A stretch of 64,000 nt of DNA, from the NCBI GenBank assembly GCA_030295235.1, contig AP026125.1:1674001-1738000 (forward strand), read 5' to 3'. The translations under genes and the position numbers were made by a program. A model generated the notes under the pieces. That model did not search any database. It was not told the origin of the DNA and saw only the letters and a program-made list of their open reading frames with translations. Source of the DNA: Fistulifera solaris (taxonomy: Eukaryota). This document shows positions 7,886 to 9,763 of the stretch, one piece after another (the stretch's first letter is position 1; each line of letters begins with the position of its first letter).

Positions 7886-9763
7886 TTAGTCAGTGCTCGT
7901 TTGTTCTTTGCGTGCGATCTTGCGGGGTGGCAAAGCAATCGGCGGAGCACGAACCGATGCGCCTTCTAACACACCCTGTTGATATTCGACCATGTAATCT
8001 AAAGCACCGCATTGACTCGCGAGCAAAGTAGCAACAGCCTCTGTTTGGGCGTGGGTTAGCGCTCCAATGCGACCCTTTCCACGTGTTCTCAGAACATCAT
8101 TCAAGACCGGGTCTGTGTCCTCCAGAGGAGGGCACTCTAAGCTGATACGTACCCGTATTTGCACCGGGAAGGGTGAGGAAGTGGCCTTGGGGTTCTTGGA
8201 AAATGCAGTGGGCTCAATATTCATCCGTGCTGGTGTAAGTGCTTCAAAGATTCCAAAAAGTAATCGGTCAGTAACATTGAACAGGAATATGGTTGCACCA
8301 GGCTGGATGTTGGAAGCTGCTGCTTTCATGTGAGCTGGTAGTCCAAATATACCCCGTCCCAGACACTCGTCCATAGTATCGGAACTACAACCAAATATAA
8401 AGCCAGGACCAGGCATCGTTGGCCAGGCATTTTCCTCATCACCGGGAGCCTTGAAGTCGAGCAAGTTTTCTGGTGGATCTTCTTCGCCAGTCCACGACTC
8501 ATAAAGCGTCACTAGCGGAGCATTCCAGATTGCTTTCATCAGAGACTCGCCAGTCTTCCATGACATGTCTTGACAGAATTGCGTTGTGCTTGTTGGAAGA
8601 AGTAGATCAGGCGCAACTTCGAGAGCTGTATCAATGGAGAGCTCAGTCGTTCGGTACCATTCAACCTGGATCCGATAGCTGAAGCTCGCCTCGCCGTGGT
8701 CGACCGACTTTTGATAAACGGCTGCAGATTTCAGCATTGCGGCACCTTGAATATGCCGGCTGTCGCTCACAGTAAAGAACAACATGACTTGTGTCTTGGC
8801 TTCAAACAATTCATTCATTTTCGCAGCATGTTTGTGCTGGACATACCATTCACCACGAACCGTACTAAGAGCCAAGTCACGTTGCGTTGCCGCCCGTAAA
8901 ATGAAAAACGATGCTTCTGAAGGTTCCAGGATTGGAATAGGCTTTCCTCCGCCACTTGCACCTCCTTCATAATACTCAATCGTTGTTTGATCAACATTTG
9001 AAAACAAGTCCTCCGAAATCTCATTTGTCGGTGTTTCCGGCTCTTGTGTTTTCTTTGGGAACTGACGTAACTCGGCTTCACCGTGAGCGAAGTGACAGCT
9101 GTCACCTATAAGATTGATAAGAAGACAAAAGATCCGTTAGAGCTGTTAGGGACGAAATTCGCGGATGCGTCGAGTTGCACAAAACTTACCGAAAGGACAT
9201 TCGCCGGCCATGAAATGCTTGCAAAGACTGATCTTATAAAATTCATTTGGTTTTGGTGCAGGTCGACGGGTTACCTCCTTGTTATTAGCTTGCATCTGTG
9301 TCAATCCGACAGAAAAATCCGCCACCAACGGTAGATCTTCTCTCGGTCGTTTGGTGTGTTTGTAGCGACAAAAGGGACCATGAATGCAAAATCCAGATCG
9401 ATAAAAAGCGCATTCCATTCGATTCTCCTCACTGATGTGACGAAACGGACAATCTTTGATTTTACAGCGATCTCCGTGACGGCAGATAGGCATTTTACTT
9501 AGATCGTATTGATGCAAAAATTCGCACGCCGCTCCTTTCATGCAAAGATCTCGCAGCCAGTGACGACATACTACCGTACGAAGACGAGGATCATGCTTTG
9601 CACTTGTCAACACAGGCTCTTCGTCGGCATTCTCGTCCGCAAAAACCGAGCCCGTCTTACGGTAGGGTAACGGATCTAGCGTTTCTGGAATTCCATGTTC
9701 GAGTGCGTAGTTTTCAAAGTCGTATTCAATCGTATTCGCGGTAATAAAGTCCTCTGTTAGCAT
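7886..9763 (-). CDS. CPSF30: CPSF30/CPSF4-like CCCH zinc-finger protein fused to a YTH-like domain and a C-terminal DCD domain; intron 9106-9189
   Basis: Exon 1 carries CRHWLRDLCMKGAACEFLH, CRHGDRCKIKDCPFRH and CAFYRSGFCIHGPFCRYKH. A GTAAG..TATAG intron joins a 4th finger, YKISLCKHFMAGECPFG|DSCHFAH. YTH-like FFILRA..DLALSTVRGEW..MLFFTVSDSRHIQGAA..IQVEW follows, then DCD-like GFIFGCSSDTMDECLGRGIFGLP..IQPGATIFLFN..LFGIFEA..FPVQIRV. Confidence 0.85.

Follow-up and report, generated by a model that had tools for sequence, protein, structure and literature searches.

The 64,000 nucleotide (nt) stretch of the Fistulifera solaris genome analyzed here (assembly GCA_030295235.1, contig AP026125.1, positions 1,674,001 to 1,738,000), referred to as the window, contains a minus strand gene at window positions 7,886 to 9,763. 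From its sequence the gene was identified as the diatom orthologue of CPSF30/CPSF4, which is the zinc-finger subunit that binds RNA within the cleavage and polyadenylation machinery. It is almost certainly a two-exon gene for a heterokont-type CPSF30 in which the CCCH zinc fingers are followed by a YTH domain and a DCD domain. The best overall explanation, which is considered somewhat probable, is that the protein is a heterokont-specific extended CPSF30 that would read modified RNA at polyadenylation (poly(A)) sites.

Gene Structure and Splicing

The coding sequence is divided into two exons. Coding exon 1 (9190..9763, minus strand) starts with an ATG at 9763 and comprises 191 codons and the first base of codon 192. 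Encoded in it are a conserved N-terminal region, fingers 1-3 of the CCCH type and the front half of finger 4. The N-terminus was colinear with the diatom consensus in the alignment. Coding exon 2 (7886..9105, minus strand) has its stop codon at 7886-7888 and encodes the second half of finger 4, a disordered linker, the YTH domain, a structured linker, the DCD domain and a C-terminal tail. The product of exon 2 (405 amino acids, aa) was designated P0001 and that of exon 1 P0002. Residue numbers of the YTH and DCD domains refer to P0001.

The intron (9106..9189, minus strand) is 84 nt long, is in phase 1 and has the form GTAAGT...TATAG (GT..AG). It preserves the frame, yet carries in-frame TAA stops, and if it is retained the frame terminates at codon 206. 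In the list of open reading frames (ORFs) the gene appeared as two separate minus strand ORFs, 9146-9763 (205 aa) and 7886-8818. Joining 9763-9190 to 9105-7886 with a script gave a coding sequence of 1794 nt with one terminal stop, encoding 597 aa. The splice junction was colinear, with zero indels, with all 13 of 13 aligned homologues, four of which are MMETSP transcript-derived proteins. Eleven related metagenome loci were also compared. One of them (L010) begins after the junction site, leaving ten informative loci, and all ten read straight through finger 4 at that site. Splicing of 9106-9189 is a prediction well supported by the canonical sites and the colinear junction. A search of sequencing runs listed five from two studies, none of them recorded as RNA; one, with 0.95 of the sequence words, may be the source assembly. 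The original prediction, which was made from the DNA letters alone, had placed the gene, the intron and the ORF 9146-9763 at these coordinates, and all of them agreed with the ORF list, the splice sites and the open spliced frame. Its proposal that removal of the intron would fuse the fingers, the YTH domain and the DCD domain in one protein was likewise upheld by the 597 aa frame, the homologues and the metagenome loci.

Intron positions in the CPSF30-YTH-DCD gene varied among diatom lineages. No intron was present within finger 4 in any of the ten informative loci. An intron was found directly after finger 4 in L004 (L004:2840-3020), at the first DCD residues in L007-L009 (L007:3700-3860) and within the finger region in L011 (L011:1400-1640).

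The CCCH Fingers

The zinc fingers carry the identification as CPSF30. The Pfam family zf-CCCH matched three stretches of P0002 (E 3.8e-10), and residues 58-139 aligned to residues 60-145 of human CPSF4 (6fuw_C) with an E of 5.5e-28. The fingers also matched yeast Yth1 (7zgp_B, E 1.3e-14). Finger 1 (9512..9568, minus strand, aa 66-84) and finger 3 (9356..9412, minus strand, aa 118-136) were located by pattern match and the 6fuw_C alignment. Finger 2 (9437..9484, minus strand, aa 94-109) has the spacing C-x5-C-x4-C-x3-H and a zf-CCCH_2 match at residues 93-109. We take fingers 1, 2 and 3 to be the equivalents of human CPSF4 ZF2, ZF3 and ZF4. Human ZF2-3 is the poly(A)-signal-binding pair of the human complex. 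The homologues are labeled 'cleavage and polyadenylation specificity factor subunit 4' by their database sources. A protein atlas search repeated the family name; its first match, with a score of 0.85, is treated as a lead only. The CPSF30 identity that had been proposed for the fingers agrees with the human CPSF4 match.

Finger 4 (9083..9223, minus strand, with the intron inside; aa 181-199 of the spliced protein) has the spacing C-x7-C-x5-C-x3-H. The first two cysteines are encoded in exon 1 and the third cysteine and the histidine in exon 2. In locus L001 the counterpart of this finger is uninterrupted, and its top three matches included tristetraprolin (1m9o, 1.3e-10) and TIS11d (1rgo, 6.4e-10), while the match to CPSF4 was weaker (3.9e-05). 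Finger 4 differs from the TIS11/tristetraprolin family in having C-x7-C instead of C-x8-C and in being a single finger, not a tandem pair. The term TIS11-like, under which a fourth finger had been predicted, seems a fair description of its sequence, though it applies to one finger rather than a tandem pair. The finger is also present upstream of the YTH domain in other heterokont orthologues.

The YTH Domain

The YTH domain (8528..8911, minus strand, residues 65-192) was delimited by Pfam, structure matches, the structural model and conservation. PF04146 scored 69.8 bits against a cut-off of 22.1 (E 2.4e-19) and was covered from profile position 2 to 134 of 135. The best relative of solved structure by sequence was the YTH domain of Arabidopsis CPSF30 (AtCPSF30) bound to N6-methyladenosine (m6A) (5zuu, 4.2e-13), followed by YTHDC2 and YTHDC1. 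Sequence similarity to the YTH domain of Toxoplasma CPSF4 (7ng2) was weak (E 0.14). An AlphaFold2 model gave a predicted local distance difference test (pLDDT) score above 90 across the domain. A Foldseek search returned 159 matches at E up to 0.001, which were YTH domains throughout among the matches listed, and the top match was again 5zuu_A (E 7.6e-11, TMt 0.74, root mean square deviation (rmsd) 3.9 over 157 columns).

The residues of the m6A cage were assigned by sequence alignment only, and their conservation was scored over 94 diatom sequences. W86 (8846-8848, minus strand) aligned with the first cage tryptophan (W377 of human YTHDC1, W259 of Arabidopsis) and was invariant (94/94). D76 (8876-8878, minus strand), at the N1-contact position, was also invariant (94/94) and aligned with an asparagine in AtCPSF30 and YTHDC2. 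The residue at this position hydrogen-bonds N1 of m6A in YTHDC1 and YTHDF1 (PMC7384225). F141 (8681-8683, minus strand) occupies the third cage position and was F in 92 and Y in two of the 94 sequences. In several non-diatom heterokonts this position is W, in contrast to the F of the diatoms; elsewhere it is W in the DF type, L in human DC and Y in plant DC proteins.

The DCD Domain and the Tandem Model

The DCD domain (8030..8404, minus strand, residues 234-358) has a predicted EVE-like PUA fold. The Dev_Cell_Death family (PF10539) matched with 98.2 bits against a cut-off of 27.8 (E 3.9e-28), over profile positions 2-123 of 126. Of the four DCD motifs named by Tenhaken et al. 2005, FGLP was exact at residues 253-256, while FLF stood for LFL, PVQI for PAQV and PLED for PLxE. 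Several residues of these four motifs were invariant in diatoms. When modeled alone the region had a pLDDT of 86.5. The closest fold match to the model was the EVE protein PH1033 (1wmm; Z 13.5, rmsd 3.3, 124 aligned). YTH domains followed at Z 11-12, the EVE-HNH enzyme VcaM4I at Z 11.0, the EVE protein THYN1 bound to 5mC DNA at Z 9.8 and ASCH at Z 9.5. Fifteen chains reached a Z of 8 or more and these were EVE, YTH or ASCH without exception. The earlier calls of a YTH and a DCD domain were thus both matched by profile and by fold.

Over the 94 diatom sequences, constraint on the protein is strongest in the DCD domain. This domain had 42 invariant columns out of 125 and a mean identity of 85.3% to the window protein, compared to 13 of 128 columns and 65.0% for the YTH domain. 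The YTH-DCD linker (8405..8527, minus strand, residues 193-233) is 41 residues long, of which seven are invariant, and is structured in the model (block pLDDT 82-93).

The AlphaFold2 model of P0001, built on 94 aligned sequences, had a mean pLDDT of 83.7 and a predicted template modeling score (pTM) of 0.80. Residues 1-51 were disordered. The block mean pLDDT was 77 at residues 51-60 and lay between 82 and 97 from residue 61 to residue 380, a span that includes the YTH-DCD linker. In this model the protein carries two PUA-like modules, YTH and DCD, in tandem, joined by a conserved and confidently modeled linker. The pTM and the linker confidence suggest that the two domains pack rigidly.

The C-terminal tail (7889..8029, minus strand, residues 359-405) has 47 residues and includes the end of a helix, a second helix and a proline-rich motif. 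The motif (7925-7945, minus strand, residues 387-393) was invariant in 94/94 diatom orthologues. The tail around it was poorly conserved and had low model confidence. The proline-rich motif may be a short docking motif. P0001 gave no KH match in Pfam even at E up to 1.

Relatives and Distribution

When P0001 was used as the query, 278 proteins reached an E of 0.001 or lower. The best 120 of these, all at E 1e-169 or better, were diatom-type throughout and each contained YTH and DCD; the closest match was 89% identical. CCCH, YTH and DCD were combined in 110 of the 120. The other ten had YTH and DCD alone and were 389-461 aa long (ids given: P0061, P0069, P0087, P0089, P0093, P0113, P0114, P0116, P0117). 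No KH family was found in any of the 120. Named members came from Phaeodactylum tricornutum (PHATRDRAFT_50624, 71% identity), Epithemia, Nitzschia, Attheya, Chaetoceros tenuissimus, Mayamaea and Eucampia.

In a library clustered at 50% identity 1635 proteins matched at E up to 0.001, and 26 proteins picked among the best 150 of them were scanned with Pfam. Three were diatom-type, 14 others had CCCH, YTH and DCD, and nine were DCD-only or truncated forms. The architecture survey that had been suggested with the original prediction found CCCH, YTH and DCD together in diatoms and in 14 further scanned proteins. This combination recurs in oomycetes (Hyaloperonospora, Peronospora), in Chrysoparadoxa australica and in the brown alga Cladosiphon okamuranus. 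These orthologues were 31-36% identical to the diatom protein, in a single alignment spanning YTH and DCD. Six of the ten clusters looked up received names, including "CPSF subunit 4" from JGI and one eukaryote gene model. A KH domain was present in nine of the 14 non-diatom orthologues. Eight of these nine matched KH-I_KHDC4-BBP (one also KH_1), and one matched KH_1 alone and weakly (E 0.00098). From these scans the KH domain appears to have been lost in diatoms.

Four proteins of the same library (P0142, P0169, P0185, P0219) consisted of DCD domains in tandem, two to four per protein, with no other recognizable part. P0142 is 917 aa long with three DCD stretches (478 bits).

Comparison to Known Systems

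The architecture itself has been described. Bell, Wolf and Koonin (2020) reported CPSF30 orthologues with YTH and DCD "in many heterokont species" (PMC7641849). The original prediction had stated that no such architecture was known to it, and this statement is refuted by that report. The window protein belongs to the same family and has the module order in common with it, namely CPSF30 fingers, YTH and DCD. Bell et al. predicted that DCD binds modified RNA, primarily 5-methylcytosine (m5C), and that YTH and DCD recognize distinct modifications (PMC7641849). A second modified-RNA-reading module has thus already been proposed in print. No experimental follow-up of the CPSF30-YTH-DCD proposal was found in the literature. 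The main text of PMC7641849 does not contain the word 'diatom', and its supplements may list diatom members. The heterokont Znf-YTH-DCD-KH form of CPSF30 given there has a C-terminal KH domain, whereas the diatom form lacks KH and has 47 residues after DCD. The tristetraprolin-like finger 4 of the diatom and other heterokont proteins finds no mention in the available text of that paper. A search of the literature on diatom YTH and m6A found no paper on this protein among the matches listed. The present analysis adds the absence of KH in diatoms, the altered YTH cage, the DCD as the best-conserved domain and the lineage-specific intron in finger 4.

Arabidopsis CPSF30-L likewise has CCCH fingers followed by YTH, and provided the best sequence and fold match for the YTH domain. 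The plant protein ties m6A reading to the choice of poly(A) site. It lacks a DCD domain, unlike the diatom protein. Its status as an m6A reader is documented in PMC12626882, where the W259A/W310A mutation, which includes the second cage tryptophan, abolishes m6A binding. The plant cage is W-W-Y (PMC7384225), whereas in the diatom protein the second W is missing and F is at the third position. Toxoplasma gondii CPSF4 also has CPSF30 fingers and YTH, and links the formation of 3' ends to the reading of m6A (Farhat et al. 2021, PMC8313237); the available text of that paper describes no DCD. The words 'heterokont', 'stramenopil' and 'diatom' are absent from it. Plant DCD proteins (Tenhaken et al. 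2005, PMC1182354) share the Dev_Cell_Death match and the exact FGLP with the diatom protein, while the other three motifs are variant here. The plant DCD occurs in Kelch, ParB or N-rich proteins, in contrast to the 3'-end processing factor in which the diatom DCD is found. Among prokaryotic EVE domains, the modeled diatom DCD was nearest in fold to PH1033, as given above.

Proposed Function

In the proposed mechanism the CCCH fingers would hold the protein both to the pre-mRNA and within the complex that processes 3' ends. The YTH-DCD tandem would read chemically modified nucleotides, and this reading would bias the site or the occurrence of cleavage and polyadenylation. Such a mechanism would parallel those of plant CPSF30-L and Toxoplasma CPSF4. 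We give this reader mechanism of the tandem an even chance of being correct. The coupling of the protein to m6A is something we infer. For the YTH domain, the most likely reading of the alignment is that it still accommodates N6-methyladenine through W86, D76 and F141 in an altered cage; m6A reading by that cage seems about equally easy to believe and to doubt. The DCD would most likely bind a second, different modified base, for which m5C was proposed by Bell et al. This assignment of a different base is tentative and stands somewhat below even.

Several observations weigh against this explanation. The second cage tryptophan (W310 of Arabidopsis, W428 of YTHDC1) has no counterpart in the sequence alignment. 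The W310 position aligned with K132 against 5zuu or with H136 against YTHDC2, both of which are variable in diatoms, and the nearest aromatic residue, Y130, is Y or F in just 71/94. A YTH domain of a non-diatom heterokont that otherwise scored 115 bits to 5zuu likewise had a gap where the second tryptophan would align. No measured ligand for any DCD domain was found in the literature, and no DCD binding assay was found in the literature from 2021 among the matches listed. The readers of the oomycete Phytophthora sojae were stated in 2024 as still unidentified (PMC11449341). The divergence of the cage with a retained GEW tryptophan, which had been noted originally, is reflected in the invariant W86, the missing second W and the F at the third position.

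A stronger form of the proposal is that the diatom DCD, and not the relaxed YTH, is the principal reader. The DCD would then form a rigid two-pocket module with the YTH, and poly(A)-site choice would be gated by a second mark (m5C or other), alone or together with m6A. This form is speculative and rather unlikely.

Alternative Explanations

The differences in the YTH domain could also mean that it has lost m6A reading and become a sequence-specific or structural module for binding RNA or protein. The DCD alone would then read the modified base, or the tandem would recognize unmodified RNA. The YTH domain of S. pombe Mmi1 is an example of a non-m6A module. The missing counterpart of the second tryptophan and the far weaker constraint on YTH than on DCD in diatoms point this way, as do the Pfam YTH scores, which were 59-72 bits in diatoms against 101-137 in five heterokont relatives (22-94 in the remaining relatives). 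The invariance of W86 and D76 and the near invariance of F141 are, however, hard to explain without a pocket, and the best match by both sequence and fold is a YTH domain bound to m6A. Loss of m6A reading is considered a serious possibility but an unlikely one. A non-RNA role for the DCD, which would bind modified DNA or chromatin co-transcriptionally or mediate protein-protein contacts, is quite improbable. Protein contacts were suggested for plant DCD proteins by Tenhaken et al. 2005 (PMC1182354), and Bell et al. permit DNA binding in addition (PMC7641849). Among the nearest folds are DNA-binding EVE domains, namely those of VcaM4I and of THYN1 with 5mC DNA and the N-terminal domains of McrB. 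The fold is equally near to RNA-binding YTH domains, however, the rest of the protein is wholly an RNA-processing factor, and other heterokont orthologues add an RNA-binding KH domain beside the DCD.

Two further alternatives concern the gene itself. The plant short isoform CPSF30-S is produced by use of an alternative poly(A) site located within an intron, and retention of the 84 nt intron here could be a regulated switch to a finger-only isoform, like CPSF30-S vs CPSF30-L. The stop at codon 206 falls within finger 4, just past finger 3, which would in principle allow a short product. That product would finish in a broken finger 4. As the intron is missing at this site in all ten related diatom loci that cover it, it is lineage-specific and cannot be something the family depends on. 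A conserved switch between short and long isoforms is therefore unlikely to be based on it, and regulated retention as such is very improbable. The locus could also be read as two separate genes without splicing, one for a finger protein (9146-9763) and one for a YTH-DCD protein (7886-8818 or longer), given that each ORF is open by itself and that ten of the best 120 database proteins have YTH and DCD only. This is scarcely credible, with canonical splice sites, a junction that restores a conserved finger with zero indels, an uninterrupted finger 4 in ten of ten loci and all three modules in one chain in 110 of those 120 homologues. The short YTH-DCD entries are consistent with gene calls that were truncated at an intron or at the end of a contig. 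The single spliced gene for an extended CPSF30 is the preferred reading.

Genomic Neighborhood

A 5S rRNA gene (9895-10013, minus strand, Rfam 101.6 bits) lies on the same strand as CPSF30, 131 nt upstream of its start codon, and was the sole Rfam match in the window. At this distance an RNA polymerase III gene lies within the promoter or 5' region of an RNA polymerase II gene. A 32 nt tandem duplication with one mismatch (10021-10052 and 10053-10084) is located directly upstream of the 5S rRNA gene. Further upstream is a minus strand ORF (10277-11188, 303 aa) that matched Peroxin-3 with 40.4 bits over profile positions 8-97 of 458. It is probably the first exon of a PEX3 gene. On the other side a convergent plus strand ORF with TPR repeats (6623-7798, 391 aa) matched TPR_12 (73.4 bits) and TPR_10 (72.2 bits). 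The stop codons of this ORF and of CPSF30 are 87 nt apart, so that the two 3' ends must abut or overlap.

Implications

As an annotation the gene adds one more ordinary orthologue to an architecture already published. It draws attention to a testable question, namely whether the choice of poly(A) site also responds to a second RNA mark. The m6A readers of heterokonts have been stated to be uncharacterized (PMC11449341). Diatoms are transformable, and the Phaeodactylum orthologue PHATRDRAFT_50624 is suited to this question. The loss of KH, the missing second cage tryptophan and the stronger constraint on DCD than on YTH help in the design of such a test. If the DCD does act as the principal reader, or as part of a dual-mark reader, this would be an epitranscriptomic input to 3'-end formation without counterpart in plants, animals or apicomplexans, and would provide the first ligand for any DCD domain.

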